From Candidatus Kapaibacterium sp. (lineage in GTDB: Bacteria; Bacteroidota; Ignavibacteria; Tepidaquicellales; Tepidaquicellaceae), in assembly GCA_041675325.1 (NCBI GenBank), contig JBAYUG010000004.1, forward strand, positions 15,759-79,758: a stretch of 64,000 nucleotides of DNA, in the 5' to 3' direction. The position numbers and the translations under genes are program-made. The notes beneath the pieces were generated by a model. The model was not told where the DNA came from and ran no database searches. It was given only the letters and a program-made list of their open reading frames with translations. Shown in pieces: positions 27,986 through 46,780 of the stretch; positions within the stretch are counted from its first letter, which is position 1; the number at the start of each line of letters is the position of its first letter.

Positions 27986-28001
27986 TATTATACTCCTTAT
28001 C

Positions 28002-28529
28002 TTATATCCAAAGTTTTCTGAAAAAATAAGCAAAGGCATACCCTCCGCCAAATATCGCCATCATTGTTATAATGCCGCCTGCTGACATTACTGCCATACC
28101 GCTTAATGCCGCACCGCTCGTACATCCCCGCCCGAGCTGTGCTCCAAAGCCGAACAAAAACCCTCCGATTAATGCTCCAATTATTCTAACACGTGTAGTT
28201 ACTTTCTGCGGATGCTCAAGTTTTAAACTCAATCTGTTAGATACCAGCCCCGAACCAAACGCACCGATTAAAACACCAATCACTTCGAACACAAGCCAGC
28301 TTTTCAGAGGATTATCTGAATGTTCAGTTTTGTACTCTTCATAATAATGTGTGTTTTCTGTGTGAGCAGGTGCAAGAGTACTTACTACCGAAACAACAGC
28401 ACTTTTGACAGCTCCGCTTGCTCCCAATCCTCTGCCTGTTATAAATATTGTTACAAGCAGAAGCAGCCCTAATAAAAATCCCGCAAGATAAGGATTCATG
28501 TATTTTGATTCTTTCATATTATATTTCAC
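28002..28529 (-). CDS. YeeE/YedE-family sulfur-compound transporter half
   Basis: 175 aa with TM segments and the GRGCTSGAALSG motif. The start is ambiguous (28529, 28517 or 28499). Confidence 0.85.
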   Translation of the reverse strand: MKYNMKESKYMNPYLAGFLLGLLLLVTIFITGRGLGASGAVKSAVVSVVSTLAPAHTENTHYYEEYKTEHSDNPLKSWLVFEVIGVLIGAFGSGLVSNRLSLKLEHPQKVTTRVRIIGALIGGFLFGFGAQLGRGCTSGAALSGMAVMSAGGIITMMAIFGGGYAFAYFFRKLWI

Positions 28530-29180: not shown

Positions 29181-30752
29181 TTAAATGTTTCTCCTTTGTT
29201 TTCTTGTTGACCTGATTCTAAGTGTCCCGTGAATTACTATTCCTAAAAAAGTGATCGCTATGATAGCTGTACCGGAATAGTCAACATATTTATTGTAATC
29301 TCTTCCTGGTATATAAAAATCTTTTAAGTTGGCTATTCTGCTGTCGTTTCTTGTGTGGCAGTCTGTGCACTGCAATGATGAATCTTTTGACGAAACCATG
29401 TGATTTATTGGCCAGTACATTTCAGTTTTTATAAACGAAATTTTTCCGCTGAACGGCAGATCAACTTCTTTCATTCCAACCTCTGAAGCTCTTTGCCAGT
29501 TAAAATCTTTCCAAAGCGCCCCTTCTCCTGTTTTGTCCGAAAATAATTTCGGCTGTATTAATGTTTTATACACAGGGTCGTAAGGTTGTTTTGCTTTGTG
29601 AATTTTTACAGGTATAATTTTCGATTCTCTGTCGTTATAAGAGCCTAATAATTTATTCAACACAAGCGGGTTTGTCGTATCGCTGATTGTGTCCCCAAGC
29701 AAATAATGCTGGGCATTTCCGTTAAACCATATATAATCAGGTTTTAAATTTTTACCCCACTTAAATGTTCCTTTAATTGAAAGGTATGTATGGTTTCCGT
29801 CTGCGTCATCTTCTTCGTAAGGCTCACCGTTCTTCAGTTTTCCGGCTGTTGACCAGTCCCACTCCATCTTAGTTGCATTAACTTTTGCGTAAACAGGAAT
29901 GTGGCATGTCTGGCAGGCAACCTTCATGTTGTGTTCGTTTAAAACTGAATTGCTGTGAGGACTTTCTGTATGACATTGCTCACAGGTTGAGCGGTCTCTG
30001 TTCATTGAAGACAAAGAATAAACCTTCCCAAGCATTTTATGTTTCTCTGTAAGGTGACAATCAATACACTGTAAGTTCTTTCCATCTGTTGCCATGTGAA
30101 CGTCTGTTGTTTTTTCAGGCGCAAACATGGATTCTTCAAGGTCCCCGTGTTTTACGTTGTTTCCGCCGCCTCCGTAAAAATGACACACACCGCAATTTGA
30201 CCTTTTAGGCTTGCCTACGCCCTGTGCAATGCTGCTAAGATTTAATTTAGGGTTGGGGTATCCTGATAATTCTTCCCCCTTGGCGTATGTCTCTGTGTTG
30301 TCGTGGCAGACAAGACAGTCAACATTATTTTCATCTGTAAATGCAAAACTCTTGTCTGTCATTCCAAAACCAATATGGCATTTAGCACAGCTTTGCTCGT
30401 TTCCGTCCACACCTATACAGAAATTATTAATAGCATTCTTCTTTCCTATTGATATAATGCCTCTTCCTTTCACATACTCCTGCCTTTCCCAGTTCCAGTG
30501 GCTTGAGTTCATTACCTCTGTATGTCTGTCTGTATGACAGGTGTTGCATACAGCCGTTACCTCTTGGGGTGTAGCAAAATTCTTTTTCAGTACATCAAAT
30601 TTTGAGTGGTCAACAGAAGAAATATATTTTTCCGAATACTTCTCTTTTAACTTGTCAACCGTACCAACATCATGTTCTTTCGGTACAAGGAGTAAAATTG
30701 CAGATATTATGAATAGTATAAACAGCGTAACAGATATGAAGACTTTTTTCAT
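29181..30752 (-). CDS. Octaheme c-type cytochrome, tetrathionate-reductase (OTR) family
   Basis: 523 aa with exactly eight CXXCH motifs: CNTCH, CAKCH, CLVCH, CGVCH, CIDCH, CEQCH, CQTCH, CTDCH. It has an N-terminal anchor and a C-terminal TM helix. Confidence 0.85.
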   Translation of the reverse strand: MKKVFISVTLFILFIISAILLLVPKEHDVGTVDKLKEKYSEKYISSVDHSKFDVLKKNFATPQEVTAVCNTCHTDRHTEVMNSSHWNWERQEYVKGRGIISIGKKNAINNFCIGVDGNEQSCAKCHIGFGMTDKSFAFTDENNVDCLVCHDNTETYAKGEELSGYPNPKLNLSSIAQGVGKPKRSNCGVCHFYGGGGNNVKHGDLEESMFAPEKTTDVHMATDGKNLQCIDCHLTEKHKMLGKVYSLSSMNRDRSTCEQCHTESPHSNSVLNEHNMKVACQTCHIPVYAKVNATKMEWDWSTAGKLKNGEPYEEDDADGNHTYLSIKGTFKWGKNLKPDYIWFNGNAQHYLLGDTISDTTNPLVLNKLLGSYNDRESKIIPVKIHKAKQPYDPVYKTLIQPKLFSDKTGEGALWKDFNWQRASEVGMKEVDLPFSGKISFIKTEMYWPINHMVSSKDSSLQCTDCHTRNDSRIANLKDFYIPGRDYNKYVDYSGTAIIAITFLGIVIHGTLRIRSTRKQRRNI

Positions 30753-31126: not shown

Positions 31127-31747
31127 CTATGAAGACTCTTTCATCACTGTTATATGTGCTGTTTTAGGATTGTCTGTTATTTCTTTTGTGATGCTTAGCT
31201 TGCTTTGGTGTGCAAGTCCTCTCAGCCCTCCTTTTGAAACGTAAGATTTAAAATTGCGGTAGTGCTCTCTTCCCGCTACAAACTCAACAATACCGTTAAT
31301 CTTGTCTGTAAATCCTCCGGGTCTCGGCACAAGATAATCAACAATTATTATATTTTCGGCATGCTTCGAAAGAAGCTTCAGAAGAGGGACCCTATCGGAT
31401 TCATTTATTTCATGAATAACATAAGAAAGAACGGCGTAATCATATTTTATGTCACTGCCTTTAAGATATGTATATGCATCCGCATGAATGTACTCTATTT
31501 TTTCCGAAAGTAGTTTGCACAGCTTTTTTTTTGCTGTGTCAATGTTCCTTATTGATAAGTCTATACCAGTATATTTTCTGTATTTATCCCAAAGGCGGAA
31601 CGCCATTCTTCCTGTTCCGCATCCTACATCAAGAATCACGGAATCGTTACTAATAATTTCTTTTACAGTTTCAAAAGCCTTGTCCTGATTAGGAGCAATC
31701 ACTTTGTCGTAAAACATTCCGTCATACCAGTGATTCTTGTTCTTCAT
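31127..31747 (-). CDS. Class I SAM-dependent methyltransferase
   Basis: Motif I, ILDVGCGTGR. Contiguous with the upstream gene. Confidence 0.85.
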   Translation of the reverse strand: MKNKNHWYDGMFYDKVIAPNQDKAFETVKEIISNDSVILDVGCGTGRMAFRLWDKYRKYTGIDLSIRNIDTAKKKLCKLLSEKIEYIHADAYTYLKGSDIKYDYAVLSYVIHEINESDRVPLLKLLSKHAENIIIVDYLVPRPGGFTDKINGIVEFVAGREHYRNFKSYVSKGGLRGLAHQSKLSITKEITDNPKTAHITVMKESS

Positions 31748-32383
31748 TTACAAATTTACTATTTCGTTAAAATAATCTTTGTCAAGATGTTTCGGTGTAT
31801 ATACTTCGTCACGTCTGTTTATGTTTCTTGTGAAAGCTCGCAGATGATTTTCAGATGCTCTTTTCAGATTGTTATAGACCATAGCTATATCTTTGTTGTC
31901 TGTGTCTTTTACAGCGTCCATTAAGTCTTTAATATCAATCTCTTCTATCTCGGCTGCTGCTTTCAATGCGTCAAGAGCCGATTTGTTTCCCTGATTAAGC
32001 AAAGATAAATAAAGGTTCTTAATTTTTTCATTCTTAAACTCACCCGTTTTCAGACCGCTCACGGGATTTACTATTCCATACTTGTTAAGAAGAGATTCAA
32101 TCGCATCCATATGCTTTTGTTCTGCTTCTTTTATATTGCCAAACGGTCTTAATCCCCACTTGTCATACATGGTTATGTAAAAATCCCTTGCCATCTTTTC
32201 TTCCTCAATCATATACAGCATTTCTTTTTCTTCTTCTGCCGATACATCCTGTTTCGGCAAATCAATAGCATAATAACACGAATGCTTATCTTGGGCTTTT
32301 GCTTCACTGATAAATATATTGCCGTTCAAAAAACCTGCAAATATTATTATTGTAAAGATGCTTGCTAAAATGTTTGTTTTCAT
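31748..32383 (-). CDS. Secreted DUF2202 / ferritin-like domain protein
   Basis: Signal peptide. EEEKMARDFYITMYDKWGLRPFGNIKEAEQKHMDAI is the DUF2202 pattern as I remember it. Confidence 0.72.
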   Translation of the reverse strand: MKTNILASIFTIIIFAGFLNGNIFISEAKAQDKHSCYYAIDLPKQDVSAEEEKEMLYMIEEEKMARDFYITMYDKWGLRPFGNIKEAEQKHMDAIESLLNKYGIVNPVSGLKTGEFKNEKIKNLYLSLLNQGNKSALDALKAAAEIEEIDIKDLMDAVKDTDNKDIAMVYNNLKRASENHLRAFTRNINRRDEVYTPKHLDKDYFNEIVNL

Positions 32384-33478: not shown

Positions 33479-35377
33479 ATGAAATACTTGAACTCTATCT
33501 CGTTTTTAACATTGTTGATGTTTGTAAATATTTCTCTGGCGCAAATGACACCTTTGCCCACTCAGACATCTTCTATTTTTTCCGGCTCAGGCAACTGTGC
33601 AACTTGTCATACCGGAAACGGAATTGTGCTTACAGAAAACGGTGTTGATATTTCCCCTATCACTCACTGGCGTTCCTCTATGATGGGTAATTCATCTAAG
33701 GACCCTTTCTGGCGTGCAATCGTTGCAGAAGAAATTCACGAGCATCCTCAGTTTCAGTTTATAATTGAGAGCACTTGTACAAAATGTCATGCACCTATGG
33801 GACACAGACAGGCAATTCAGAACGGTGACTCAGGATACACTATGTCACAGATGAAAGCAGACCCCCTCGCAAACGATGGTGTAAGTTGTACATCCTGCCA
33901 TCAGATTAAAAATACAAACTTCGGTTCTTCCTCAAGCTATACCGGCGGATATAACATTACTACTGAACGAATTATTTACGGTCCGTATCCGAATCCCCTT
34001 GTACAGCCGATGATTACATTTGTTAACTATACCGCCGTTCATTCTACATCAATGAATAATTCAGAGCTTTGTGCGACCTGTCATACATTGTTTACACCTA
34101 CTGTAAACTACTCAGGACAGATTGTGGGCTCTTTTCCAGAACAAACACCTTATATCGAATGGAAGAATAGCAATTATAAAACTTATAACGTTCCTTGTCA
34201 GACATGTCACATGCCTATAACTAATACACCGATAGATATATCTTCTATCCCTCCCTTCGATACAACAAAGCGAAGCCCGTACTGGAAACACCTTTTTGGT
34301 GGCGGCAACACTATGCTAAATAGAATCATGAGAAATAATATTGATTCACTACAACTTTCTGCTTCTGCTTCAAACTTTGATACTACATTGGTCTATACAG
34401 AGAGAATGCTTAAGGAAACCGCCGTGAACCTTACTATTACACCGGCGTACAGCTCTGGCTTTATAAATATTGGCGTTACAGTTGAAAACCTCGCTGGTCA
34501 TAAATTACCAACAGGAATTCCGTACAGAAGAATGTGGGTTCATTTTAAAGTCAAGGACCAAAGTAACAATATAATCTTTGAATCCGGAAACTGGGATACT
34601 CAGGGTGAAATCATAGGGCTGGATTCTTTATATGAACAGCACTATTCTGAAATTACAAATACGAATCAGGTTCAGATTTACGAAGGTGCCTTTAAAGATA
34701 TTAATGGTAACTTTACGTTTAACCTATTAAGATCAGCCGCTTTCTTAAAAGATAACAGACTTCCCCCTAAAGGTTTTAACACTTCTCATCCAAGCTATGA
34801 CACAATAGCGATTGTAGGCGGTGCTGTCAGCGACACTAACTTTAACAGACAAGGAACAACTCAGGGCACGGGCAGGGATATTATTTATTATAAAGTGCCT
34901 GCTGTAACCGGGTCACAGTACACGATTTCTGCTGAACTCTGCTACCAAACTATTCCGCCCCGGCTTGTTACTTATATACAGGGTATAAGTTCTCCCGACA
35001 TACAAAAGTTTGTATCCCTTTATAACACAGCTGATAAGTCTCCTGTAATCATGAAAACTGTATCCGTTCCATTCTTAACAGGCGTTAATCCTATCGGTAA
35101 TATTACACCCGCATCATTTAAACTTTATCAGAATTATCCGAATCCGTTCAACCTCTCAACAAAAATTAGATTTGATGTACCAAACGGTAATAAATTTATT
35201 AGTCTGAAAATATATGATGTGCTTGGAAAAGAAGTCCGGACGCTTGTTGCGGGATCTTTGATACCGGGTTCTTATGAAACAGATTTTGATGCCAAAGACC
35301 TTTCTTCGGGAATGTTCTTCTGTGTTTTGCGCTCAGAAAGTTTTTACGAAATCAAACGTATGATGTTTATTAAATAA
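33479..35377 (+). CDS. Pentaheme c-type cytochrome with T9SS C-terminal sorting domain
   Basis: 632 aa with a signal peptide and five CXXCH motifs (CATCH, CTKCH, CTSCH, CATCH, CQTCH). The C-terminus (YQNYPNPFNLSTKIRFDV...GMFFCVL) is T9SS-CTD-like. Confidence 0.85.
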   Translation: MKYLNSISFLTLLMFVNISLAQMTPLPTQTSSIFSGSGNCATCHTGNGIVLTENGVDISPITHWRSSMMGNSSKDPFWRAIVAEEIHEHPQFQFIIESTCTKCHAPMGHRQAIQNGDSGYTMSQMKADPLANDGVSCTSCHQIKNTNFGSSSSYTGGYNITTERIIYGPYPNPLVQPMITFVNYTAVHSTSMNNSELCATCHTLFTPTVNYSGQIVGSFPEQTPYIEWKNSNYKTYNVPCQTCHMPITNTPIDISSIPPFDTTKRSPYWKHLFGGGNTMLNRIMRNNIDSLQLSASASNFDTTLVYTERMLKETAVNLTITPAYSSGFINIGVTVENLAGHKLPTGIPYRRMWVHFKVKDQSNNIIFESGNWDTQGEIIGLDSLYEQHYSEITNTNQVQIYEGAFKDINGNFTFNLLRSAAFLKDNRLPPKGFNTSHPSYDTIAIVGGAVSDTNFNRQGTTQGTGRDIIYYKVPAVTGSQYTISAELCYQTIPPRLVTYIQGISSPDIQKFVSLYNTADKSPVIMKTVSVPFLTGVNPIGNITPASFKLYQNYPNPFNLSTKIRFDVPNGNKFISLKIYDVLGKEVRTLVAGSLIPGSYETDFDAKDLSSGMFFCVLRSESFYEIKRMMFIK

Positions 35378-35436: not shown

Positions 35437-36183
35437 TCACGTGTGATTGTGATATATACTAAGAACAAACAACAAGGCAACACCTGCCAAGAATGCCAGA
35501 CCATGAATAATATTATTTTTTAGAGTAGTGTGTTTATTAACTTCGGGAATTAAATCTGTTGCACCAATATACAAGAAGTTCCCTGCTGCAAATGGTATAA
35601 GGAATGACACATTAATTTTGTCAGAAATAAAATATGTAATCAAACCACCAATTAAAAACGTAGAAGACGAAAGCAAATTATAAAGAATAGCCTTCTTCTT
35701 TTCCCAGCCGCTATGTACAAGCGCCGCAAAATCACCAAGCTCTTGTGGAATTTCGTGAAAGATTGCACCTAACCATGCGATTAAACCAAGATTAAAATCT
35801 ATAAGGAATAATCCGGATATCGAAAGACCCCCTATAAAATTATGTAAACCATCACCAAGCAATATTAACACGGACATAGGCTTTCTGCAGTCGCTTTCGG
35901 CTTTTTTACAATGGTGGTAATGCAGATACTGTTCAAATATAAAGAACAGACTAAACCCTGCGACGAATATAAGAAAGAATGTTCTAACATTCTCAATATG
36001 TTGTAAACCCTCAGGAACCATCATAAAAAAAGCACCGCCAATGAGTGAACCCGCAGAAAATGCTACAAGCGGCGTGAGAAGTTTTAATTGTGTTTGTTTT
36101 GTAAACAGCATTATAAGTCCTCCCGAAAGAGAAACAACGCTCATTAAAACCCCAAAAACTACAATCACTAAAAACGCACTCAT
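35437..36183 (-). CDS. ZIP-family divalent metal transporter
   Basis: 248 aa, polytopic, with the HEIPQELGDFA signature. Confidence 0.88.
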   Translation of the reverse strand: MSAFLVIVVFGVLMSVVSLSGGLIMLFTKQTQLKLLTPLVAFSAGSLIGGAFFMMVPEGLQHIENVRTFFLIFVAGFSLFFIFEQYLHYHHCKKAESDCRKPMSVLILLGDGLHNFIGGLSISGLFLIDFNLGLIAWLGAIFHEIPQELGDFAALVHSGWEKKKAILYNLLSSSTFLIGGLITYFISDKINVSFLIPFAAGNFLYIGATDLIPEVNKHTTLKNNIIHGLAFLAGVALLFVLSIYHNHT

Positions 36184-36376: not shown

Positions 36377-36443
36377 GGTAAAAGTTTTGCTCTTGACTTG
36401 TTTAAAATATCTTTATACTTTAGTTATGAACATTAGTTCATAA
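36377..36443 (+). promoter_or_regulatory. Promoter plus palindromic operator, copy 1 (upstream of the radical-SAM/CGGC operon)
   Basis: GGTAAAAgtTTTGCTCTTGACTT contains -35 TTGACT at 36393-36398. TACTTT lies at 17-nt spacing (36416-36421). The palindrome TTATGAAC-ATTA-GTTCATAA is at 36424-36443. Confidence 0.6.
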
Positions 36444-36564
36444 TATAACAAGTTTGTTATTATAATTAAATGACAATATGAATAGTTTTAATTCAGTAAA
36501 ATCATAGAAACAAACTAATAAAGAAAACGCCTTTTTGTTAAGGTTATCAGGAAAGGGGCAAAGA

Positions 36565-37593
36565 ATGGACAACACAAAAAAATGGTTAAGAAGGAAAATC
36601 GAAACCTTTTGTGCAGCGCTTGAGCGGAATATCTTGTTAAATAAATCTCTTAAGTGTAAGGTGGTTTTTGGTCCTGTACATTCAAGAAGACTTGGTCTTG
36701 TTATTGGAGTTAACAATATTAAACCAAGCACCTGTTCCTACAATTGTATATATTGTTCATCTGGAAATAAGACCTGTTGTTCTGTCTGTACTTCAAATTG
36801 TATTTCTCCTTACGAACTTCATGCCTCCATGAGAAATAAGTTAACAAACATTGATCAATTAAAAAATAAAATTAATTATATCGTTTTTACGGGGAGTGGA
36901 GAACCTGCTTTAGATACAGAGCTATCGAAAGAGATTACCATACTGAGAGAATTTGGATATAAAATTGCTGTTTTTACAAATGCTTCGCTTATTTGGAATG
37001 CACATATACGTGAAAATTTAATGTTTGCTGACTATGTTTCATTAAAAATTGACACAGTAAATCCGGAAACATGGTTGAAAATAAATCGTCCTCATAAAAG
37101 ATTAAGTTATGACTTAATCTTAGATGGAATTAAACAGTTTTCAAAAATATATAAAGGCAAATTGTCCACAGTGACAATGCTAATAAAAGATATAAACGAT
37201 AATAAGGAAGAAGTTGAGAAACTCGCAAATTACCTTAATACGATAAATCGTGAGGTTTCGTATTTTACAACCCCTGTGTTTCCACCCCAAGAAAGTTATG
37301 TAACGAGTCCCGATTCAAATAACCTCGATTTTTTAAAAAGCCTGATTAAAGAAAAGGTATCTAAAGCAGTATTGTTATGCTGCCCTGATAACGAAGAATG
37401 CTTTACATTGAACGATTTTAAAAATGAACTTCTGGGTTTGCTTGCTATTCATCCAATAGGTGTGGAAACAGTTAAACAGTTTGTTAAAAAAGAAGTTGAC
37501 ACAATAATGCTTAACGAAATGATTGAGAGAAAGATTATTGAAGAAGTGGATTTTCACGGTAAAAAATATTTTAAGGAATGTGCTGCTTTGTAA
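36565..37593 (+). CDS. Radical SAM protein, paralog 1
   Basis: I moved the start to ATG 36565, with GAAAGGGG upstream. VFGPVHSRRLGLVIGVNN...CSYNCIYC is a CX3CX2C motif, followed by an extra Cys-rich insert KTCCSVCTSNC. Confidence 0.85.
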   Translation: MDNTKKWLRRKIETFCAALERNILLNKSLKCKVVFGPVHSRRLGLVIGVNNIKPSTCSYNCIYCSSGNKTCCSVCTSNCISPYELHASMRNKLTNIDQLKNKINYIVFTGSGEPALDTELSKEITILREFGYKIAVFTNASLIWNAHIRENLMFADYVSLKIDTVNPETWLKINRPHKRLSYDLILDGIKQFSKIYKGKLSTVTMLIKDINDNKEEVEKLANYLNTINREVSYFTTPVFPPQESYVTSPDSNNLDFLKSLIKEKVSKAVLLCCPDNEECFTLNDFKNELLGLLAIHPIGVETVKQFVKKEVDTIMLNEMIERKIIEEVDFHGKKYFKECAAL

Positions 37594-37690
37594 ACAAGCC
37601 AAGGTTTACATTAACAGAAAAATGTGAAAGCAGATAAAGGGAAAAAGAGTTTTATTGAATTATAAAAAACATTAAATCATTAAAAAGTTC

Positions 37691-38137
37691 ATGAAAGAAA
37701 AAGTAAATATTGGTATTATAATTTGTGACAGGTATAAAAGCTGTGCAGGTGGTAAATGTTTTAGAGCAATTAAAGAAAGGTCAGGTGCTTTTGATATATA
37801 TGCAGATAAAGATGTAGAAGTAGTTGGATACACTTCCTGTGGCGGATGCCCGGGAGGAAATATTGAAAACAGTATGGAAGAACTAAAGAAAAACAATGCC
37901 GCTGTAATTCATTTTGCAACCGGAATGGTGGTTGGCTACCCTCCTTGCCCATACATTGATCATTTCAAATTATTTATTGAGAATATACACCGAATGAAGG
38001 TTGTTGTCGGTACTCATCCTATCCCGGAAAAATATTATTTAGCTCACAGAGAAATGAAAACCTGGGCATCAGAGGAGTGGGCTGATTTGTTAGAACCAAC
38101 TTTATGTAACAAAGTAACAAGAGTATATTATGACTAA
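37691..38137 (+). CDS. CGGC-domain protein
   Basis: 148 aa. IGIIICDRYKSCAGGKCF and YTSCGGCPGG match the CGGC domain signature. Confidence 0.8.
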   Translation: MKEKVNIGIIICDRYKSCAGGKCFRAIKERSGAFDIYADKDVEVVGYTSCGGCPGGNIENSMEELKKNNAAVIHFATGMVVGYPPCPYIDHFKLFIENIHRMKVVVGTHPIPEKYYLAHREMKTWASEEWADLLEPTLCNKVTRVYYD

Positions 38138-38142
38138 TTAAA

Positions 38143-39111
38143 ATGAGTCCTGAAGTTAATAATACGGAAATTGTATTCGGTCCGGTACCATCTAGAAGAT
38201 TAGGAAGAAGCATGGGAATCAACAACATCCCTCTGAAAACCTGTAGCTATTCATGTATTTATTGTCAGATTGGTAATACAAATATATTATCAACAAAAAG
38301 AAAAGAAATTTTTAAACCCAAACGAATCTATCATGAGGTATCCGAAAAGGTGATCTTTTTAAAGAGTCTTAACGAGCAAATAGACTATTTAACATTTGTT
38401 GCAGACGGAGAACCCACTCTCGATTTTAGTATTTGCAAAAGTATAGAAATATTAAAACCTTTAGGAATTAATATCGCTGTTATAACAAATTCTTCTTTAC
38501 TTTGGGACAAAGACGTTAGAAATGATTTAATGAAAGCTGATTTAGTCTCAGTCAAAATAGATACGGTTATTCCTGCCATATGGCATAAAATAAACAGACC
38601 TCATGGAAGCTTAGAACTTGATAAGATTATAAATGGAATCAGAGAGTTTGCCGCCGAATATTCAGGAAAATTAGTTACTGAAACGATGCTTATAAAAGAT
38701 GTTAACGATGATAATAAATCGCTACAAGAAACAGCAGTAATTATTAATAGTCTAAGTCCCGCCAAGTCATTTATTTTAATCCCAACTCGTCCAACTGCTG
38801 TAAAATCTGCTATAGCACCAGACGAAGAAATTATTAATATTGCTTTTCAAATATTTAACGATATTATTAAAAATGTGGAGCTCGCAATTTCGTATGAAGG
38901 AACAAACTTTTCATTTCTGTTAAATTCAGAAAAAGAACTACTTAGTATCCTTGCTGTTCATCCAATGCGATACGATGATGTTGAAGAGTTTTTAAAAAAA
39001 TCAAATATGGGCTGGAACACATTTAATCAATTAGTAAATCAACGAATCTTAAAAAAAGTTAAATATCAGGGTAATTATTTCATAATGAAAAGTAATCTCA
39101 ATATATTGTGA
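38143..39111 (+). CDS. Radical SAM protein, paralog 2
   Basis: VFGPVPSRRLGRSMGINN...CSYSCIYC. Collinear with paralog 1 along its whole length, including the C-terminal LLSILAVHP... tail. Confidence 0.88.
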   Translation: MSPEVNNTEIVFGPVPSRRLGRSMGINNIPLKTCSYSCIYCQIGNTNILSTKRKEIFKPKRIYHEVSEKVIFLKSLNEQIDYLTFVADGEPTLDFSICKSIEILKPLGINIAVITNSSLLWDKDVRNDLMKADLVSVKIDTVIPAIWHKINRPHGSLELDKIINGIREFAAEYSGKLVTETMLIKDVNDDNKSLQETAVIINSLSPAKSFILIPTRPTAVKSAIAPDEEIINIAFQIFNDIIKNVELAISYEGTNFSFLLNSEKELLSILAVHPMRYDDVEEFLKKSNMGWNTFNQLVNQRILKKVKYQGNYFIMKSNLNIL

Positions 39112-39163
39112 CAGTATATATTTTTTTAAAAACGTTTATTTAAGTCTAAAATAGGAGATTAAA

Positions 39164-39427
39164 ATGCCAAACTTAAACGGAACATGTCCAATTGGAAATG
39201 GACCAATGACAGGAAATAAATTAGGGAAATGTAACACCCCAAAATCTACTGTAACTGATAGTTCGGTATCCGATAACAGTGCAGCTAATTTTGAAGTGAG
39301 AAAAAGTGCTTTCAATCGTTGGAGAAGATTTGGCTTTGGAGGCGGTAGAGGCTTTGGAGGCGGCAGAGGTTTTGGAGGCGGCAGAGGCTTCGGAGGCGGC
39401 AGGGGCTTCAAAGGTGGCAAAGATTAA
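39164..39427 (+). CDS. DUF5320-like small protein with (GGGRGF)4 C-terminal repeat
   Basis: 87 aa with a strong RBS (TAGGAG, 7 nt spacer). The N-terminus MPNLNGTCPIGNGPMTGNKLGKC resembles the DUF5320 MP..DGTGP.G.GPMTGRG.G.C signature. The tail is FGFGGGRGFGGGRGFGGGRGFGGGRGFKGGKD. Confidence 0.7.
   Translation: MPNLNGTCPIGNGPMTGNKLGKCNTPKSTVTDSSVSDNSAANFEVRKSAFNRWRRFGFGGGRGFGGGRGFGGGRGFGGGRGFKGGKD
39332..39421 (+). repeat. 18-bp in-frame tandem repeat x5 (last copy degenerate) encoding GFGGGR units
   Basis: Units are ggctttggaggcggtaga / ggctttggaggcggcaga / ggttttggaggcggcaga / ggcttcggaggcggcagg / ggcttcaaaggtggcaaa. Confidence 0.9.
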
Positions 39428-39544: not shown

Positions 39545-39611
39545 GGTAAAAACTTTGCTCTTGACTTATAAAACAATTATCTTTAAATTTATTATGAGCA
39601 TATGCTCATAA
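39545..39611 (+). promoter_or_regulatory. Promoter plus palindromic operator, copy 2 (upstream of the NifX-like/pdaD operon)
   Basis: GGTAAAAacTTTGCTCTTGACTT contains -35 at 39561-39566. TAAATT lies at 17-nt spacing (39584-39589). A perfect 20-bp palindrome, TTATGAGCATATGCTCATAA, is at 39592-39611. Confidence 0.6.
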
Positions 39612-39639: not shown

Positions 39640-40050
39640 GTGAAAATTGCAGTAGCTTCAGACAACGGAAAAACAATAACAGGTCACGTTGGGAAATGTG
39701 AAATGTTTATCGTCTTTGATATAAACAACAAAGAAATCACGGGCATTGAAAAAAGAATAAATACTTTTACAATGCACAAAAAAGAAGGTCATCGGCACGA
39801 ACATCATCATGATGAACATAATCCCAACCAGCAAGGCGTTGGAAAGCATTTAGGAATTATTGAAGGTCTAAAAGACTGTAATTATCTTTTTTGTTGTTCT
39901 GGTGGCCAGGGATTAATGAGTGATTTAAATGCAAATGGTATTCAGACGATATTTACCGACGAAGTAGATGCAGAAGATGCTGTTAAATTGTTTCTGGCGG
40001 ATAAATTAAAAAGTGACCCTAATAAACAATGTAGTGGACATAGTCACTAA
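39640..40050 (+). CDS. NifX/NifB-like (dinitrogenase FeMo-cofactor-binding fold) protein with His-rich insert
   Basis: GTG start. [27 protein letters not shown] is the family's typical N-terminus. The insert is [15 protein letters not shown]. Confidence 0.8.
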
Positions 40051-41202: not shown

Positions 41203-41514
41203 ATGAAGGTAGTAACCGTAAAAGAAGACAATTTGAATTCCCCAATCGAGGATTGCTTTGGAAAAACAAAGTTTTTCTGCTTTATCAAAGATGATATTAA
41301 TAATATTGAGTTTGTATCGAATCCCGGCAATGATTTTTTGAAAAACTCGGGCAAAAAAGCAGTAACATTTTTACACTCAAGGGGTGTTACCTCTGTTATG
41401 TCAGGAAACTATGGAATGACTGTAAAAAAAATGTTCGATAAACACAAGATCCAGACTATTATTATACCTGCAAAATATAAAAACCTAACCCAGCTTTTAA
41501 AAATATTGAAGTAA
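41203..41514 (+). CDS. NifX/NifB-like domain protein (short)
   Basis: 103 aa. MKVVTVKEDNLNSPIEDCFGKTKFFCFI fits the family N-terminus; this is the weakest of the three. Confidence 0.68.
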   Translation: MKVVTVKEDNLNSPIEDCFGKTKFFCFIKDDINNIEFVSNPGNDFLKNSGKKAVTFLHSRGVTSVMSGNYGMTVKKMFDKHKIQTIIIPAKYKNLTQLLKILK

Positions 41515-41629: not shown

Positions 41630-42337
41630 TTATTTCTTCACTAATTTATCGAGTATTGTCTTCTCAGGAATTTCTTTAGTACAGAAAAACCAGTCATAAC
41701 ATTTCATCTTTTCTTTGCTTTCCATGCGTTCTTTCGCTACACCACAGGATCCGGCTGTAGGCACTATAACGTCGTCACCAGGTCTCCAGTCTGCCGGGGT
41801 TGCTATCGAGAATTCGTCAGCAGCCTGCATTGCAATTAAAGCTCTGTAAAGCTCATCAAAATTCCTTCCAAGACTCAAAGGGTAATATATAATTGCCCGG
41901 ATTATTCCTTTTGGGTCAATAAAAAATACTGCTCTGACGGCTTTTGTTGAGCTCTCGCCCGGTTGTATCATTCCATACTTTCCTGCTACTTCCATTGTAA
42001 TGTCTTCAATAAGAGGAAACTTAACTTCTACGTCTTTCATGCCTTTGTATTCTATCTTTTCTTTGATGGTTCTCAGCCATGCTATATGACTGTATAATCC
42101 GTCAACCGAGAGACCTACAAGCTTGCAGTTTGCCTTTGCAAACTTGTCTTCCATCGTTGCAAAAGTCATGAACTCAGATGTACAAACAGGAGTAAAATCT
42201 GCCGGATGACTGAATAAAATTACCCAGCTTCCCTTGTAATCTGATGGAAAATTTATATCTCCCTGAGTTGTTACAGCTTTAAAATCAGGGGCTTTTTCGC
42301 CGATTCTCGGCATTGCTATTGCTTTGTTTTCTTCCAT
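41630..42337 (-). CDS. Peroxiredoxin (Prx6 subfamily, archaeal-type with C-terminal Cys pair)
   Basis: 235 aa with FSHPADFTPVCTSE (peroxidatic Cys) and a C-terminal SCGVAKE...KCYDWFFC. Confidence 0.92.
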   Translation of the reverse strand: MEENKAIAMPRIGEKAPDFKAVTTQGDINFPSDYKGSWVILFSHPADFTPVCTSEFMTFATMEDKFAKANCKLVGLSVDGLYSHIAWLRTIKEKIEYKGMKDVEVKFPLIEDITMEVAGKYGMIQPGESSTKAVRAVFFIDPKGIIRAIIYYPLSLGRNFDELYRALIAMQAADEFSIATPADWRPGDDVIVPTAGSCGVAKERMESKEKMKCYDWFFCTKEIPEKTILDKLVKK

Positions 42338-42393
42338 GATTATTTATATTTGGTTTTTAATAAAAAAGGAGTTTGTTATTCTTAATACAACCA

Positions 42394-42798
42394 TTAGTTG
42401 CAATCTGCTCCGTGTTGATGTCTGTGATTGTGTTGATGGTTGTGTCCATGATGATGCTCATGCTCCTTGCACATTTCTCCGTTGTCTTTTATGTTACCGT
42501 TTAGCCAGTCATTTAATACGACTTTTACGTTGCCTGAACATCCTCTTACGACCGCAATACCGTTATCACTTAACTTGTTAACAGCACCGCCTCCGATATT
42601 GCCCGCTAACATTACTTTAACACCAATTTGTGTTAATTTTTCTACAACATTAGATTTGCATCCGCAGCTGTCAGGAGAAGAAATTATTTCTTCGTGTATG
42701 ATTTCTTTCTTGTCGTTCGTTGTGAAAACCATAAAATACTCGCAATGACCAAAGTGGTCATCTACTATACCCGAATGTGTTGGAATTGCTACTTTCAT
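42394..42798 (-). CDS. NifX/NifB-like domain protein with His-rich C-terminal tail
   Basis: MKVAIPTHSGIVDDHFGHCEYFMVFT; the tail is CKEHEHHHGHNHQHNHRHQHGADCN. Confidence 0.82.
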   Translation of the reverse strand: MKVAIPTHSGIVDDHFGHCEYFMVFTTNDKKEIIHEEIISSPDSCGCKSNVVEKLTQIGVKVMLAGNIGGGAVNKLSDNGIAVVRGCSGNVKVVLNDWLNGNIKDNGEMCKEHEHHHGHNHQHNHRHQHGADCN

Positions 42799-42851
42799 CT
42801 TATTTTTCCTTATAATATTTTAAAAAGTAATTCTGTTTTAATTTAAATAAT

Positions 42852-43823
42852 TCATTCATATAAATCATGCTCTCTTAACCAGTCGTCATTATGATACTTC
42901 GATAAATATCTCTCCCCTGTATCACAAACGATAAACACTACAACAGCATTTTCATCAAGGTTCTTTGCAATTTCAAGCGCTGCATAAGCGGCCGTTCCCG
43001 AAGAAGCACCGCAGAAGATACCTTCTTCCAAAGAAAGCCTCTTGCACATATTAATAGAATCTATGTCTTTTACACTTACAATTTCATCAACATAATCGAA
43101 ATTTGTTATCGGTGGAATAATATCTGTTCCCAGACCCTCAATCTGGTGAAGCGTCGTTTCTCCTATCTTTCCCGTATCTTTGTATCTTTTAAAGTTCGAA
43201 CCAATCGGGTCTGCTCCCGTCACCTTTATATTAGGATTCTTTTCCTTTAAATATTTTGAGACACCCGTTATTGTTCCTGCTGTTCCTACTCCGCAAACAA
43301 AATGTGTTATATTTCCGTCTGTATCGTTCCATATTTCTGTACCCGTACCGGAATAATGACTAAAAGGATTTGATTCGTTGGCATATTGATTTAAATTTAT
43401 TGCATTAGGTATTTCTTCAGAAAGTGCTTTCGCTTTATTCCTGTAATAATCTGGTGAGTCAGGCAGAGCCTCTTTTGGTACTATCACAACTTCAGCGCCA
43501 AGAGCTTTTAGATAGTTTCTTTTCTCCTGTCCGATTTTATCTGTCATTACAAGTATTACCCTATAACCTTTAACACGCCCGGCTAATGCAAGACCTATTC
43601 CTGTGTTTCCGCTCGTAGCCTCAACAATTGTTGACCCGGGTTTTAATAAACCCTTACTTTCAGCATCCTCTATCATTGCAAGCCCAACCCTGTCTTTAAC
43701 ACTTCCGCCCGGGTTTGTAAATTCGATTTTAGCAAGTACCGTTGCTTTAATTCCTTTCGTAAGATTATTTATCTTTACAAGTGGTGTGTTGCCTATTAGT
43801 TCAAGTATATTCTTGTAATACAT
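42852..43823 (-). CDS. cysK: Cysteine synthase (O-acetylserine sulfhydrylase / CBS-like PLP enzyme)
   Basis: 323 aa with NPGGSVKDR (PLP Lys), TSGNTG and GTAGT motifs. Confidence 0.88.
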
Positions 43824-43846
43824 ATTGTTTAATTTGTTTTGTTAGT

Positions 43847-44260
43847 TTAATCTGTCTCTTCTTTTGTACTTATAAGCTTTATACATTTTGGACAATTATT
43901 ATTATTTAATATTTTGTCCGTAAGTATAAAGTTGTTTTTACAAATTTTACATCTGGACTTATTAGTTTTTCCAAAAGTATAACTTCCGCCTTCAATTTTT
44001 ATTGCTTTCCCGAAAAGAATAGCATCTGTAATTTTTGAATGTGCCTTTTCAACAATGCGCCCAAGCGTCTGTCTCGAAATTCCCATTTTCTCAGCTGCTT
44101 CTTCTTGATATAATTTCTTTATGTCAGTTAATGTTATCGCTTCCAGCTCGTCATAGGTTAATACAACTTCCTCAAGATTTCCGAGAGGAATACCTCTCGG
44201 CTTGAAATAGCTGGACTCAGGGCTGAACGATACTTTCCTTATTTTTTTAGGTCTCGGCAT
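43847..44260 (-). CDS. DUF134-family HTH protein with C-terminal 4-Cys zinc ribbon
   Basis: I moved the start to ATG 44260, giving MPRPKKIRKVSF... DELEAITLTDIKKLYQEEAAEKMGISRQTLGRIVEKAH (HTH), then CKIC...CPKC. Confidence 0.82.
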   Translation of the reverse strand: MPRPKKIRKVSFSPESSYFKPRGIPLGNLEEVVLTYDELEAITLTDIKKLYQEEAAEKMGISRQTLGRIVEKAHSKITDAILFGKAIKIEGGSYTFGKTNKSRCKICKNNFILTDKILNNNNCPKCIKLISTKEETD

Positions 44261-44268
44261 AATGTACA

Positions 44269-44288
44269 AAATGGGCATATGCTCATAA
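44269..44288. promoter_or_regulatory. Palindromic operator, copy 3 (DUF134 / cydA divergent region)
   Basis: aaATGgGCATATGCTCATAA matches copy 2 at 17/20. It starts 9 nt upstream of the DUF134 start and ends 97 nt upstream of the cydA ATG. Confidence 0.5.
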
Positions 44289-44384
44289 TAAATCAAGCCA
44301 TTTATAAGCAATAAATTATGAAATAAATTGTACTATATTTTGAAATTATTTCTTTATATGTTTATATCAACCTTATTCAATAGA

Positions 44385-45755
44385 ATGGATACTGAAATAT
44401 TATCAAGAATTCAATTTGCTTTTACAATTGCCTTCCATTACATATACCCTCCGATAAGCATTGGTCTTGGGGTGCTGCTTGTTATTATGGAAGGTATGTA
44501 TGTTAAAACAAAGAATAAAACGTATGAACATATAACAAAGTTCTGGATTAAAATATTTGCGTTGGTCTTTGCTATGGGAGTTGCCACCGGAATTGTCATG
44601 GAGTTTGAATTCGGCACAAATTGGGCGACTTATTCAAGATTTGTTGGAGATGTATTTGGAAGCGCTTTGGCAGCTGAAGGAATTTTTGCTTTCTTTCTTG
44701 AATCGGGTTTTCTTGCTATTCTTGTTTTTGGCTGGAACAGGGTTTCTACTAAAATGCATTTCTTTTCAACCATCATGGTTTCTTTGGGTGCCATGTTAAG
44801 CGCAGTTTGGATTATTGTTGCAAATTCCTGGCAGCAAACCCCCGCGGGGCATCATATTGTTAATAATGCCGGAATCCTGAGAGCAGAAATCATCGATTTC
44901 TGGGCAATGATTTTTAATCCTTCCTCTGTTGACAGGCTTACTCATACTCTATCCGCCGCTTGGTTAACAGGTGCGTTTCTTGTATTAAGCGTCTCTGCAT
45001 ATTATCTGCTTAAGAACAAGCATCTCGATTTTTCCAAAAAATCTATAAAGATTGCTCTCGGACTTGCAATGTTTGCTTCTCTTTTTCAGCTCTTTACAGG
45101 ACACCAAAGTGCTGTTGGCATCAGCGTGAATCAACCGGCAAAACTTGCTGCATTTGAGGGACATTACAACACTTCTCCGGCTCCTCTTTATTTATTTGGA
45201 TGGGTTGATGATAGTCAACAAAAAGTAAATTTTGGAGTTTCCGTCCCTGGTATGTTGAGCTATCTTGTTCACGGAGATTCGAAAACCTCCATTGTGGGTT
45301 TGAATGAATTTCGTAAGGAAGATAGACCGCCCGTAAATCTTGTATTCCAATCTTATCATCTTATGGTTGCAATAGGTATGATTTTGATTGGAATCAGTTC
45401 TCTGTCAATAATAATGCTCCGAAAAGAGAAGTTGTTTAAAAGTAAAATAATGCTTAAGGTACTGGTTTTGTCTGTTCTTCTCCCGCAGGCGGCTAATCAA
45501 CTCGGGTGGATGTCTGCCGAAGTTGGCAGGCAGCCATGGATAGTTTACAACCTGCTTCGTACTAAGGATGCTCTTTCAAAATCAGTTACAGGAAGCGAAG
45601 TGTTGTTTTCTCTTATATTGTTTCTGTTAATCTATGCCCTGCTGTTTATATTATTTTTGTTCTTGCTCGATAGAAAGATTAAACATGGACCCGATATAAG
45701 TGATAATTCTGACGATGTTTATTCATCTCAGAAAGGAATGTTAAACAAAAATTAA
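44385..45755 (+). CDS. cydA: Cytochrome bd ubiquinol oxidase subunit I
   Basis: I moved the start to ATG 44385. [23 protein letters not shown] and [12 protein letters not shown] are present. Confidence 0.93.
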
Positions 45756-45763
45756 ATCAAACT

Positions 45764-46780
45764 ATGGACTTAAATATTATCTGGTTTATACTGGTTGGGA
45801 TTTTGCTTACTGGCTATGCTATCCTTGACGGATTCGATCTCGGTGTCGGTGCCTTACACCTGCTTACGAAGAGTGACCTGAACAGAAGGATATCAATTAA
45901 TTCTATCGGACCGGTATGGGATGGAAATGAAGTTTGGCTCGTAACAGGCGGAGGTGCTCTCTTTGCTGCGTTTCCGGATGTTTACGCAACAGTATTCTCT
46001 GGTTTCTATATTGCTTTTATGCTTCTCTTATTTTTTCTGATATTTCGTGCAGTTGCGATTGAATTCAGAAGCAAGCAGGAAAGTAAACAATGGCGGGTTT
46101 GGTGGGATAGAGCATTCAGCTTTTCAAGTATTTTAATAGCTTTATTGATGGGTGTTGCATTAGGAAACATAATCACTGGAATCTCTATTGGTCCGGATAA
46201 AGAATACATGGGTACTTTTCTTGAATTATTAAATCCCTATTCGATACTAGTTGGAATAACCACTGTCTCCTTGTTCATTATGCATGGTGCAATATATCTG
46301 GTTATGAAAACCGAAGGAGAACTGCAAATTCAAACAAAAAGCTGGGTTAATAATACGATTATTTTCTTTACCATTTGTTTTGTCACGACTACCATGGCGA
46401 CATTAATATATTATCCTGGTATGGTCTATCATTTTAAAGATTTTCCCCCGTTCTTTCTTCTGGCAATTATTACTATGCTTGCAATTGCGAATATACCCAG
46501 AGAAATTCATCTTGGCAGAGAGTTCAGAGCGTTTCTGTCATCTTCTGCAACAATCGCTTTGTTGCTGGTTTTATTTGCTGTAGGAATATTTCCAAACCTG
46601 GTTTTATCAAACCCTAATCCGGAATATAGTCTAAGCATTTACAACGCAGCATCATCACAGAAAACATTAATGATTATGCTTATAATGGCGATTATAGGAA
46701 TGCCTTTTGTGATAACTTATACGATAATAATTCAAAAAATATATAAAGGGAAAGTAAAAATTGATGAAATGAGTTATTAA
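45764..46780 (+). CDS. cydB: Cytochrome bd ubiquinol oxidase subunit II
   Basis: 338 aa. IWFILVGILLTGYAILDGFDLG is the typical CydB N-terminus. Confidence 0.92.
   Translation: MDLNIIWFILVGILLTGYAILDGFDLGVGALHLLTKSDLNRRISINSIGPVWDGNEVWLVTGGGALFAAFPDVYATVFSGFYIAFMLLLFFLIFRAVAIEFRSKQESKQWRVWWDRAFSFSSILIALLMGVALGNIITGISIGPDKEYMGTFLELLNPYSILVGITTVSLFIMHGAIYLVMKTEGELQIQTKSWVNNTIIFFTICFVTTTMATLIYYPGMVYHFKDFPPFFLLAIITMLAIANIPREIHLGREFRAFLSSSATIALLLVLFAVGIFPNLVLSNPNPEYSLSIYNAASSQKTLMIMLIMAIIGMPFVITYTIIIQKIYKGKVKIDEMSY

Follow-up and report, generated by a model that had tools for sequence, protein, structure and literature searches.

A two-paralog radical-SAM gene module beside NifX-like carriers in Candidatus Kapaibacterium and its possible part in metal-sulfur handling

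A 64,000-nucleotide stretch of Candidatus Kapaibacterium DNA (contig JBAYUG010000004.1, positions 15,759 to 79,758 of the forward strand; hereafter the window) carries four consecutive genes for two radical S-adenosylmethionine (SAM) proteins, a CGGC-domain protein, and a Gly/Arg-rich protein of the DUF5320 type. Here, we describe this module and its relatives in other genomes, and we ask what the four proteins might do. The genome was matched to Candidatus Kapaibacterium at 100%, a genus that NCBI places in Bacteroidota. Positions are those of the window unless another locus is named. The module consists of the following:

36565–37593, plus strand: rSAM1, radical-SAM protein, Pfam Radical_SAM at 50.8 bits
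37691–38137, plus strand: CGGC-domain protein, PF08821 at 99.2 bits
38143–39111, plus strand: rSAM2, canonical member of a widespread, uncharacterized radical-SAM family, starting 5 nt past the CGGC gene
39164–39427, plus strand: DUF5320-type protein of 87 aa, PF17253 at 22.7 bits (below threshold)
39332–39408, plus strand: 18-bp tandem repeat coding for GFGGGR units, 4.3 copies (Tandem Repeats Finder: 91% matches, score 126)

The initial annotation, made from the letters of the sequence, had placed four same-strand genes at 36565–39427 with gaps of 97, 5, and 52 nt, and the list of open reading frames (ORFs) agrees. An alternative start for rSAM1 is the TTG at 36535. The four genes presumably form one operon.

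rSAM1 and rSAM2 align end to end with 37% identity (E = 1e-73) and are full-length paralogs, as first proposed. The motifs pointed out at that stage are all present: VFGPV(H/P)SRRLG, CSY(N/S)CIYC, and LL.(L/I)LA(I/V)HP, as well as KTCCSVCTSNC and CCPDNEEC. Both proteins belong to the Radical_SAM family (PF04055), with 50.8 bits for rSAM1 and 39.1 bits for rSAM2 against a threshold of 29.5, and their cluster motifs, CSYNCIYC and CSYSCIYC, respectively, have the CX3CX2C form. rSAM2 displays the motifs GPxxSRRxGxSxG, CxYxCxYC, GEP, NRPH, TRPP, and VHP, together with a winged-helix-like C-terminal domain. Near-invariant residues in its family are G13, P14, S17, R18, R19, G21, S23, G25, C34, Y36, C38, Y40, C41, G44, D81, G89, E90, P91, N116, D140, P153, F169, G175, M182, N188, R216, P217, and P274. 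The radical-SAM triad (CxYxCxYC) holds the only cysteines conserved across rSAM2 and 91 diverse family representatives.

The rSAM2 family is large. It comprises 3,848 clusters at 50% identity with E ≤ 1e-3, of which 625 have E ≤ 1e-30, nearly all as full-length alignments, and an rSAM2-type gene is found at no fewer than 594 genomic loci (at least that many). The genome scan was run with a 12-sequence family alignment, and 80 loci (numbered with an L below) were kept for study. Their sources are anaerobes of both prokaryotic domains: Ignavibacteria, Desulfobacterales, Anaerolineae, Thermotogae, Thermococci, Thermoplasmatales, Bathyarchaeia, Methanothrix, Hadesarchaea, and others. Their proteins share 45–61% identity with rSAM2, and 45–53% identity separates Bacteroidota from Archaea, a striking degree of conservation between the two prokaryotic domains. 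Extensions of longer family members look like read-through sequence, with the exception of one metagenomic protein of 356 aa (P0239) in which the family core is fused to a TrmO_N domain (115.8 bits); this is either a true fusion or an assembly artifact. At three loci (L018, L042, and L059), a second, unrelated radical-SAM gene adjoins the family member. Its product has an N-terminal Cys-rich segment and a Fer4_12 domain and is AmmeMemoRadiSam- or PFL-activase-like.

rSAM1 is the divergent paralog. Nearly all of its named orthologs belong to Ignavibacteria, Melioribacteraceae, and similar genomes, one of them the cultured Ignavibacterium album, and they share 32–39% identity with every other family member. 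rSAM1 departs from the family consensus at four near-invariant sites (S23 to V46, D81 to N104, V125 to I148, and R216 to F239, in rSAM2 and rSAM1 numbering, respectively). The initial annotation had credited this paralog alone with extra Cys-rich segments, a claim that stands for eight cysteines conserved among 120 rSAM1 orthologs: C16 (89%), C31 (97%), C71, C72, C75, and C79 (90–99%), and C272 and C273 (95–97%). It does not stand for the final cysteine of CCPDNEEC (C279), which is kept in just 2%. An AlphaFold (AF2) model of rSAM1, built from a 94-sequence alignment, reached a pLDDT of 87.3 and a pTM of 0.86. The model has an rSAM1-specific N-terminal helix (residues 2–25), a beta hairpin that holds GPxxSRRxG, a partial TIM barrel, and, at the C-terminus, a winged-helix-like helix-helix-helix-hairpin domain (residues 285–338). 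The low-confidence regions are the loops with the extra cysteines, as would be expected of metal-binding loops modeled without metal. It is probable that rSAM1 carries auxiliary metal sites through these eight cysteines, in an unusual location.

The pair fits no characterized family in profile, structure, and literature searches. All NCBIfam matches of both proteins lie far under the cut-offs. The best sequence-model matches are viperins (pVip, defense), at 43–45 bits in NCBIfam, where the cut-off of NF038283 is 180, and at 43–46 bits with the PADLOC pVip models included. These cover only the first ~140–170 of 257–281 model positions, that is, the N-terminal half, and there is no defense context; we rejected this assignment. 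The tungsten-cofactor maturase model gave 32–36 bits against 380, and MoaA gave ~34 against 284. A maturase of ribosomally synthesized and post-translationally modified peptides with a SPASM or twitch domain was also rejected, as there is no SPASM match in Pfam, the NCBIfam SPASM models gave 17–21 bits against 400–625, and the C-terminus is free of cysteine and winged-helix-like. Pfam, NCBIfam, and cysteine conservation thus agree with the early remark that no such C-terminal Cys cluster is present. A glycyl-radical activase was rejected on scores of 26.5 bits against 232 (PFLA) and 24 against 174 (PFLE_PFLC), and no glycyl-radical enzyme gene was found in the window or the loci. As for NifB, in which radical-SAM and NifX-like domains are joined in one protein, neither rSAM matches the model TIGR01290 (cut-off 344 bits) at E ≤ 0.01, and the C-terminal part of that model is matched only by the NifX-like neighbors of the module. 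The Cys/His ligands of the NifB K1 and K2 clusters are absent in rSAM2-type proteins, and the eight extra cysteines of rSAM1 sit elsewhere.

None of the PDB sequences matched rSAM1, rSAM2, or the CGGC protein. A profile of the rSAM family gave weak, generic radical-SAM matches, the best at E = 2e-6 on viperin-like cores. We then compared the rSAM1 model with the PDB using Foldseek. NifB topped the list (7jmb, E = 3.7e-10; also 7bi7 and 6y1x), with pyruvate formate-lyase (PFL)-activating enzyme, TYW1 (2yx0 and 6djt), RlmN, and viperin nearly equal. Identities of ~15% and TM-scores near 0.5 amount to a generic core, and no solved structure is a close relative. Ranked by TM-score per target (TMt), PFL-activating enzyme is the nearest full-length fold, at 0.73–0.74. 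Literature searches on DUF5320, the CGGC domain, COG0731, DUF134, and radical-SAM proteins with the orange protein (ORP) complex, IssA, or DUF89 found no functional study of these families. The initial impression that none of the module's families has an experimentally defined function therefore holds for the curated families, structures, and literature found.

Many family members are labeled “wyosine synthetase” by JGI, which implies that the rSAM proteins are TYW1-related and modify RNA. TYW1 structures are among both the Foldseek and the profile matches, the radical-SAM core is similar in size to that of TYW1/COG0731, and the profile and fold similarities, though weak, are there. The winged-helix-like C-terminal domain, the TrmO-like genes next to the family in four loci, and the TrmO_N fusion of P0239 are also consistent with an RNA substrate. 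However, the TYW1 model TIGR03972 gives 17 bits against 318 for rSAM1 and no match for rSAM2, and the extra cysteines required for the second [4Fe-4S] cluster of TYW1 are absent in rSAM2 and in the 91 family representatives; we rejected TYW1 on these grounds. Furthermore, the host is a bacterium, and wyosine synthesis is not known from Bacteria. The genes around family members are overwhelmingly metal and Fe-S genes, not translation genes. Given the TYW1 score and the PDB and fold evidence, the JGI name is unsupported for these proteins, and the chance that they modify RNA seems to us very slight.

The CGGC protein is a clear member of its family, at 99.2 bits against a PF08821 threshold of 27, and CGGCPGGN is kept in 13 homologs. 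An alignment of these 13 shows conserved residues C12, C18, C23, C50, C53, C86, H74, and H108. CGGC proteins are very alike from Ignavibacteria to Bathyarchaeia and Geobacteraceae. The DUF5320-type protein of the window falls below the PF17253 threshold (22.7 bits against 27) and matches profile positions 1–58 only, but its orthologs in L001 and L011 score 32.6 and 34.0 bits, respectively, so DUF5320-like is a fair name for it. It begins with MPxxxGTxPxGxGPxTG, a motif kept from Archaea to Bacteria, and continues in GFGGGR (Gly/Arg/Phe) repeats without a C-terminal coiled coil. The full-length DUF5320 protein of L010 has a center rich in Gly, Arg, Trp, and Tyr. Fusions of DUF5320 with a NifX-like domain occur in L017 (35.3 bits, above threshold) and, with weaker scores, in L022 and L040. 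A 94-aa minus-strand ORF at 39136–39420, rich in PPLKPLPPPKP, mirrors the Gly/Arg repeat in antisense and is in all likelihood not a gene.

Synteny with other genomes, on which the initial annotation had made its reading depend, was found. The order rSAM1, a DUF89/ARMT1-like gene, CGGC, rSAM2, DUF5320, NifX-like, arginine decarboxylase occurs in L001 and L002, with variants in L003, L009, and L011. The DUF89/ARMT1-like gene lies between rSAM1 and CGGC in L001 (6709–7476), L002, and L003; in the window, its place is the 97-nt gap at 37594–37690. A short Gly/Arg protein of the DUF5320 type follows rSAM2 on its 3′ side in all six two-rSAM loci with a contig long enough to tell, the window included. 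Among the loci sampled, the two-rSAM arrangement is confined to Ignavibacteria/Kapaibacteria relatives. The four-gene unit is lineage-specific, and the rSAM2-type family and its set of partners are far broader.

That invariable position of the DUF5320-type gene raises the possibility that the rSAM proteins are protein-modifying maturases, with the DUF5320-type protein, the equivalent tails fused to NifX-like domains, or the CGGC protein as substrate. The helix-helix-helix-hairpin domain of the rSAM1 model, winged-helix-like as it is, could be a peptide recognition element, and the DUF5320 N-terminal motif, with its conservation across both domains, could be the recognition sequence. The closest full-length fold, PFL-activating enzyme, is itself an enzyme that acts on a protein. 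On the other side, a DUF5320 gene is present in only 4–10 of ~80 loci, depending on the detection method, and its product fuses with NifX-like rather than rSAM domains. The absence of a SPASM/twitch cluster and of a glycyl-radical enzyme nearby also speaks against a maturase, and the enzyme's invariant residues, mostly basic (SRR, NRPH, and TRPP), would suit a polycationic substrate poorly. We consider a protein substrate unlikely.

Next to what genes do rSAM2-type genes lie outside this lineage? ORFs of all loci were grouped with all-against-all BLASTP, shadow ORFs were discarded, and Pfam supplied the cluster names. The analysis covered 79 loci, many on short contigs, and a family was counted where it lay within 10 kb of the rSAM gene. 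NifX-like proteins (PF02579) are the most frequent, at 31 loci, in 18 of them within the same-strand run, and NifX-like fusions are found in 15 further loci. They are followed by metallo-beta-lactamase (MBL)-fold proteins (25 loci), MinD/CbiA ATPases with two ferredoxin motifs (24), type-11 methyltransferases (20), DUF134 (13), CGGC (12), Mrp (12), CoADR/NSR-like flavoproteins (11), PAS sigma54 activators (10), IscU (10), and ZIP transporters (9). Further neighbors include ArsP-type permeases, FeoB, Fur, DtxR, DUF1847, J-domain proteins, and peroxiredoxin, in addition to the TrmO-like proteins mentioned above. The rSAM gene typically closes a gene run, such as “NifX NifX IscU DUF1847 NifX NifX rSAM” (L070 and L077) or “NifX x4 DUF1847 MBL rSAM” (L017). 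One Thermoplasmatales locus (L022) brings together DUF134, rSAM, DUF5320, NifX, DUF89, two ATPases, a CDF transporter, an MBL-fold protein, and a methyltransferase. The early guess of a metal-cofactor or Fe-S function gains strength from the genes that prevail around the family in other genomes (NifX-like, MinD-Fer4, Mrp, IscU, Fur/DtxR/FeoB/ZIP, and DUF134), and any such function is read from context. The NifB-style link to a NifX-like carrier domain takes the form of adjacency rather than fusion.

The same neighborhoods allow another kind of product: a small organic molecule (for example, a cofactor, a metal-cluster ligand, or a phosphorylated metabolite) that the rSAM family would synthesize or repair jointly with the MBL protein, the methyltransferase, and the DUF89 phosphatase, with the metal genes being users of the product or simply co-regulated. 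MBL and methyltransferase genes are among the commonest neighbors and are often directly adjacent. DUF89/ARMT1-like genes lie between rSAM1 and CGGC in three loci, as noted, and occur with ATPases in L010 and L022. The best sequence matches, although far below threshold, are enzymes that act on nucleotides (viperin, MoaA, and the tungsten-cofactor maturase), and the invariant Arg and His residues could bind phosphates. However, the viperin and MoaA matches span only the generic core, no recognizable pathway enzymes recur, and the window module has neither an MBL nor a DUF89 gene, yet is conserved. We judge small-molecule chemistry of this kind to be distinctly unlikely.

J-domain proteins deserve a separate remark. 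Small ones with Cys/Arg-rich tails adjoin the rSAM gene in L045, L047, L067, and L080, with IscU in the same run in L045 and L080, which recalls the HscB-IscU pair of Fe-S cluster transfer.

The window surroundings of the module include carriers, metal transport, and regulators, as follows:

35437–36183, minus strand: ZIP-family metal transporter, divergent from the module, Pfam Zip at 120 bits
36386–36399, plus strand: promoter segment TTTGCTCTTGACTT, a 14-mer with a −35-like TTGACT, identical to the 14-mer at 39554–39567
36424–36443, plus strand: operator 1, palindrome TTATGAACATTAGTTCATAA, just 3′ of the −10 region and ahead of rSAM1
39554–39567 and 39592–39611, plus strand: promoter copy 2 and operator 2, TTATGAGCATATGCTCATAA, ahead of the NifX-like gene at 39640
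39640–40050, plus strand: NifX-like (Nitro_FeMo-Co) protein with a His-rich insert, PF02579 at 46.3 bits
40056–40601, plus strand: pyruvoyl-dependent arginine decarboxylase, PF01862 at 200 bits
40786–41196, plus strand: DUF134 putative regulator 1, with a C-terminal CxxC...CxxC, PF02001 at 50.3 bits
41203–41514, plus strand: NifX-like protein, PF02579 at 35.3 bits
42337–41630, minus strand: peroxiredoxin, in the operon led by DUF134 regulator 2
42798–42394, minus strand: NifX-like protein with a His-rich tail, in the same operon
43823–42852, minus strand: cysteine synthase, in the same operon
44260–43847, minus strand: DUF134 regulator 2, at the head of the minus-strand operon 41630–44260
44269–44288: operator 3, core ATGGGCATATGCTCAT at 44271–44286, between DUF134 regulator 2 and cydA
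44328–46780, plus strand: cydAB cytochrome bd oxidase, divergent from DUF134 regulator 2 (ORFs; Cyt_bd_oxida_I and II are annotated in the syntenic L001)

The ZIP transporter and the NifX-like proteins named early on as neighbors are thus recovered by Pfam at the scores listed. In the whole 64-kb window, tblastn found no homolog of MinD-Fer4, Mrp, IscU, MBL, or DUF89.

The module was also said to sit behind a shared promoter and operator, and this is the case: copies lie at 36386/36424 and 39554/39592, each with the 14-mer, an AT-rich −10-like stretch, and then the palindrome, and a third operator has its core at 44271–44286. The operator consensus is the 20-bp palindrome TTATGARC-N4-GYTCATAA. 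The core of operator 3 lies 11 nt 5′ of the ATG of DUF134 regulator 2 and is common to the operon that this regulator leads and to the divergent cydAB. In L001, a 74%-identical Ignavibacteria relative, the palindrome recurs at the same three positions (5430, 9477, and 14071). Three matches against 0.04 expected mean that the operator is not a product of chance. In L004, the palindrome lies directly 5′ of a DUF134-led operon whose last genes are CGGC and rSAM. From this repeated linkage, a DUF134 regulator probably binds the palindromic operator, and its probable target is TTATGARCATATGYTCATAA. The position of the operator just downstream of the −10 region suggests repression. The half-site TTATGAA is like the TTGTGAA of Rex, but the spacing would be off by two bases; a Rex or a CRP/FNR site was considered. 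Rfam searches of the window and the leader regions turned up neither a riboswitch nor any other RNA. A generic promoter and terminator scan was uninformative in this AT-rich DNA, with 32 promoter-like sites against 25 expected and the operator palindrome as the sole “terminator.”

The loci L003, L009, and L011 have a PAS sigma54 activator nearby instead of DUF134, and no palindrome. A regulator swap is thus apparent among close relatives, with an OrpR-like PAS sigma54 activator and no operator in these three, and DUF134 with the operator in the window, L001, L002, and L004.

The operator shared by cydAB, cysteine synthase, and peroxiredoxin, together with a nearby octaheme cytochrome, points to control by sulfide or redox state. 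Redox repair had been offered early on as a further role for the module, and for this part of the proposal the support found is regulatory, through the operator shared with cydAB and the peroxiredoxin operon. Another reading of the same facts is that the genes only share their control with cytochrome bd, peroxiredoxin, and cysteine synthase, as parts of a regulon for redox, sulfide, or oxygen stress, and have no pathway in common with the NifX-like proteins. The shared operator is in keeping with it, as are the rubrerythrin, Usp, thioredoxin, and peroxiredoxin genes of related loci and the response of orp genes to redox potential in Desulfovibrio (PMC8359166). However, the tight same-strand adjacency of rSAM to NifX-like, ATPase, and IscU genes persists across phyla, in both domains, and under different regulators (DUF134 or a sigma54 activator), which is typical of functional coupling and not of shared regulation alone. 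Mere co-regulation is, in our estimation, highly unlikely.

Two described systems built on NifX-like proteins offer a comparison. The ORP complex of Desulfovibrio includes the Orp3/4 ATPases with two [4Fe-4S] motifs, the metal-sulfide protein Orp8, and the MrpORP protein Orp9, and its genes are controlled by the redox-sensing PAS sigma54 activator OrpR (PMC6345978, PMC8359166). A small [2Fe-2S]-binding protein is also mentioned in the ORP operon (PMC6345978). The neighbor families counted above for the rSAM2-type genes match those of this complex and also those of IssA, described next. L003, L009, and L011 resemble the ORP system, as they carry MinD-type ATPases with two [4Fe-4S] motifs, NifX-like and Mrp proteins, a PAS sigma54 activator, and a small protein that is Gly-rich or contains Cys. 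Unlike these, the window has no ATPase, Mrp, or sigma54 activator; it has DUF134 and the palindromic operator instead, and NifX-like proteins are the only ORP-type family present. Proteins with the DUF5320 motif or a Gly/Arg-rich sequence that end in a zinc-ribbon-like CxCPKCG...CPxCG rather than a coiled coil were seen in L019 (326–751), L046, L047, and L053, and the L019 protein also bears a ferredoxin domain. They are possible counterparts of the small [2Fe-2S]-binding protein of the ORP operon.

IssA of Pyrococcus furiosus joins a NifX-like domain to a cationic Gly/Arg/aromatic tail and holds iron and sulfur in store as thioferrate (PMC5524996). Elemental sulfur induces SipA/IssA of Thermococcales together with a second NifX-like protein and “CobQ” Fe-S ATPases (PMC6981617). 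The window resembles this system in having NifX-like domains next door (39640–40050, 41203–41514, and 42394–42798) and a module that encodes a cationic, low-complexity Gly/Arg/aromatic sequence, a type proposed to wrap anionic iron sulfide. DUF5320 is chemically akin to the IssA tail, and the NifX-DUF5320 fusions of the three loci given above have the IssA architecture. The window differs in that a separate protein of 87 aa, which has the conserved N-terminal motif of DUF5320, bears the tail-like sequence, and that two of the NifX-like proteins have His-rich rather than Gly/Arg-rich regions. No radical-SAM partner has been described for IssA. For ORP and IssA together, no radical-SAM or CGGC component is mentioned in PMC6345978, PMC8359166, PMC5524996, or PMC6981617.

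NifB is the third point of comparison. Like NifB, the family is a radical-SAM protein tied, here genetically, to carriers of the IPR003731/NifX type, with IscU/NifU-type scaffolds and SIMIBI-class ATPases nearby, and NifB structures top the Foldseek list. Unlike NifB, it has neither the TIGR01290 match nor the K1/K2 ligands in rSAM2-type members, no fusion to NifX was seen, there are no nif genes, and the structural match, at ~15% identity, is no better than those to PFL-activating enzyme, TYW1, RlmN, and viperin.

On gene context and sequence features, we think it likely that the module is part of metal-sulfur handling. Our fuller interpretation, to which we would give a little less than an even chance, is that it is the Ignavibacteria/Kapaibacteria form of a wider, uncharacterized extension of the system by which anaerobes handle metal and sulfur. 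That system would be built around NifX-like (IPR003731/PF02579) carriers and include the ORP complex and the IssA thioferrate store. rSAM2 would be the conserved enzyme, cleaving SAM reductively at its single [4Fe-4S] cluster and acting in trans on an anionic metal-sulfur species that a NifX-like carrier holds, or on a ligand of that species. The logic would be that of NifB, with the radical-SAM and NifX parts on separate proteins. rSAM1 would be a lineage-specific partner or donor whose eight extra cysteines bind one or two auxiliary clusters. The CGGC protein, with its six cysteines and two histidines, could be a metal or Fe-S scaffold or an electron donor, translationally coupled to rSAM2. 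The DUF5320-type protein would provide, as a separate chain, the kind of cationic Gly/Arg/aromatic tail with which IssA is proposed to wrap anionic iron sulfide. The four genes would be expressed as one operon, repressed through the palindromic operator that a DUF134 regulator probably binds.

The mechanistic part of this proposal, action on a carrier-bound metal-sulfur species, we put forward tentatively. NifB-like action in trans is favored because the NifX-like carrier is the dominant and most widespread partner, because the invariant residues of rSAM2 are largely basic, and because the canonical enzyme has no auxiliary cluster of its own.

Several points weigh against the metal-sulfur interpretation. 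All of the functional evidence is guilt by association. About half of the 79 loci, many of them on short contigs, show no NifX-like gene, and the enrichment of neighbors over genomic background is a rough estimate on assumed copy numbers. The structural match of the model to NifB does not discriminate between families. rSAM2-type proteins do not have the Cys/His set for NifB-like K clusters, so a cluster substrate would need to be presented by another protein. Because the window has no MinD-Fer4, Mrp, IscU, MBL, or DUF89 gene, the module here works without most of the usual partners. The frequent MBL, methyltransferase, DUF89, and TrmO-like neighbors suit small-molecule or RNA chemistry equally well. 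Finally, a protein substrate would be compatible with the strict adjacency of rSAM2 and DUF5320 in this lineage, with the winged-helix-like domain, and with the PFL-activase-like fold.

A bolder version of the metal-sulfur proposal is that rSAM2-type proteins supply the missing catalytic core for a pathway widespread in anaerobic Bacteria and Archaea and independent of NifB, one that builds, remodels, or mobilizes non-standard metal-sulfur species on NifX-like carriers. The species might be a thioferrate-like chain, a thiometallate chain, or a complex cluster, handled together with DUF5320 polycations, CGGC/DUF1847 scaffolds, and Orp-type ATPases. We regard this version as improbable on present evidence. 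If true, it would give an enzymatic function to the orange-protein and IssA systems and establish cluster-processing radical-SAM enzymes of a second class.

Despite years of study, neither the ORP complex nor the IssA family has a defined biochemical pathway, and the assembly, storage, and detoxification of iron sulfide in sulfide-rich anaerobes are still largely open. The present analysis ties a large, unstudied radical-SAM family, the CGGC domain, DUF5320, and DUF134 to NifX-type carriers in both prokaryotic domains, and it supplies concrete candidates: an enzyme, its likely partners, and a likely regulator with its operator. On present evidence, this is not a new kind of biology. It is an enzyme-containing variant of known, poorly understood systems, and, judged from its genes, the module appears to be a good lead to a missing step in the iron-sulfur chemistry of anaerobes.

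A few features around the module merit brief description. His-rich segments are present in two of the three NifX-like proteins of the window, internally in the protein at 39640–40050 and C-terminally, as EHEHHHGHNHQHNHRHQHGADCN, in that at 42394–42798. They stand in place of the Gly/Arg tails of IssA-like proteins and suggest that a divalent metal (Ni, Zn, or Fe) is bound, not that a polyanion is wrapped. The arginine decarboxylase gene is kept right after NifX-like or rSAM genes in 7–8 Ignavibacteria/Kryptoniota loci (L001, L002, L003, L009, L011, and L013 among them). In L013, it lies directly 3′ of the rSAM gene; the window copy shares the operator of the NifX-like gene before it.

The region just upstream of the module has a sulfur-redox flavor. 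The octaheme cytochrome c, of the tetrathionate reductase family, is encoded at 29181–30752 (TIGR04315, 586 bits), a 632-aa multiheme protein with a type IX secretion system sorting tail at 33479–35377, and a weak match to a YedE-like sulfur/selenium transporter lies at 26795–28051. A SAM-dependent methyltransferase (31127–31747) and a DUF2202 protein (31748–32383, 176 bits) are encoded 4–5 kb upstream of the module. Each turns up again near the rSAM gene of distant taxa: Kryptoniota (L013) has the methyltransferase, and Methanothrix (L048 and L074) has the DUF2202 protein. The conserved neighborhood may therefore reach to ~31.1 kb.

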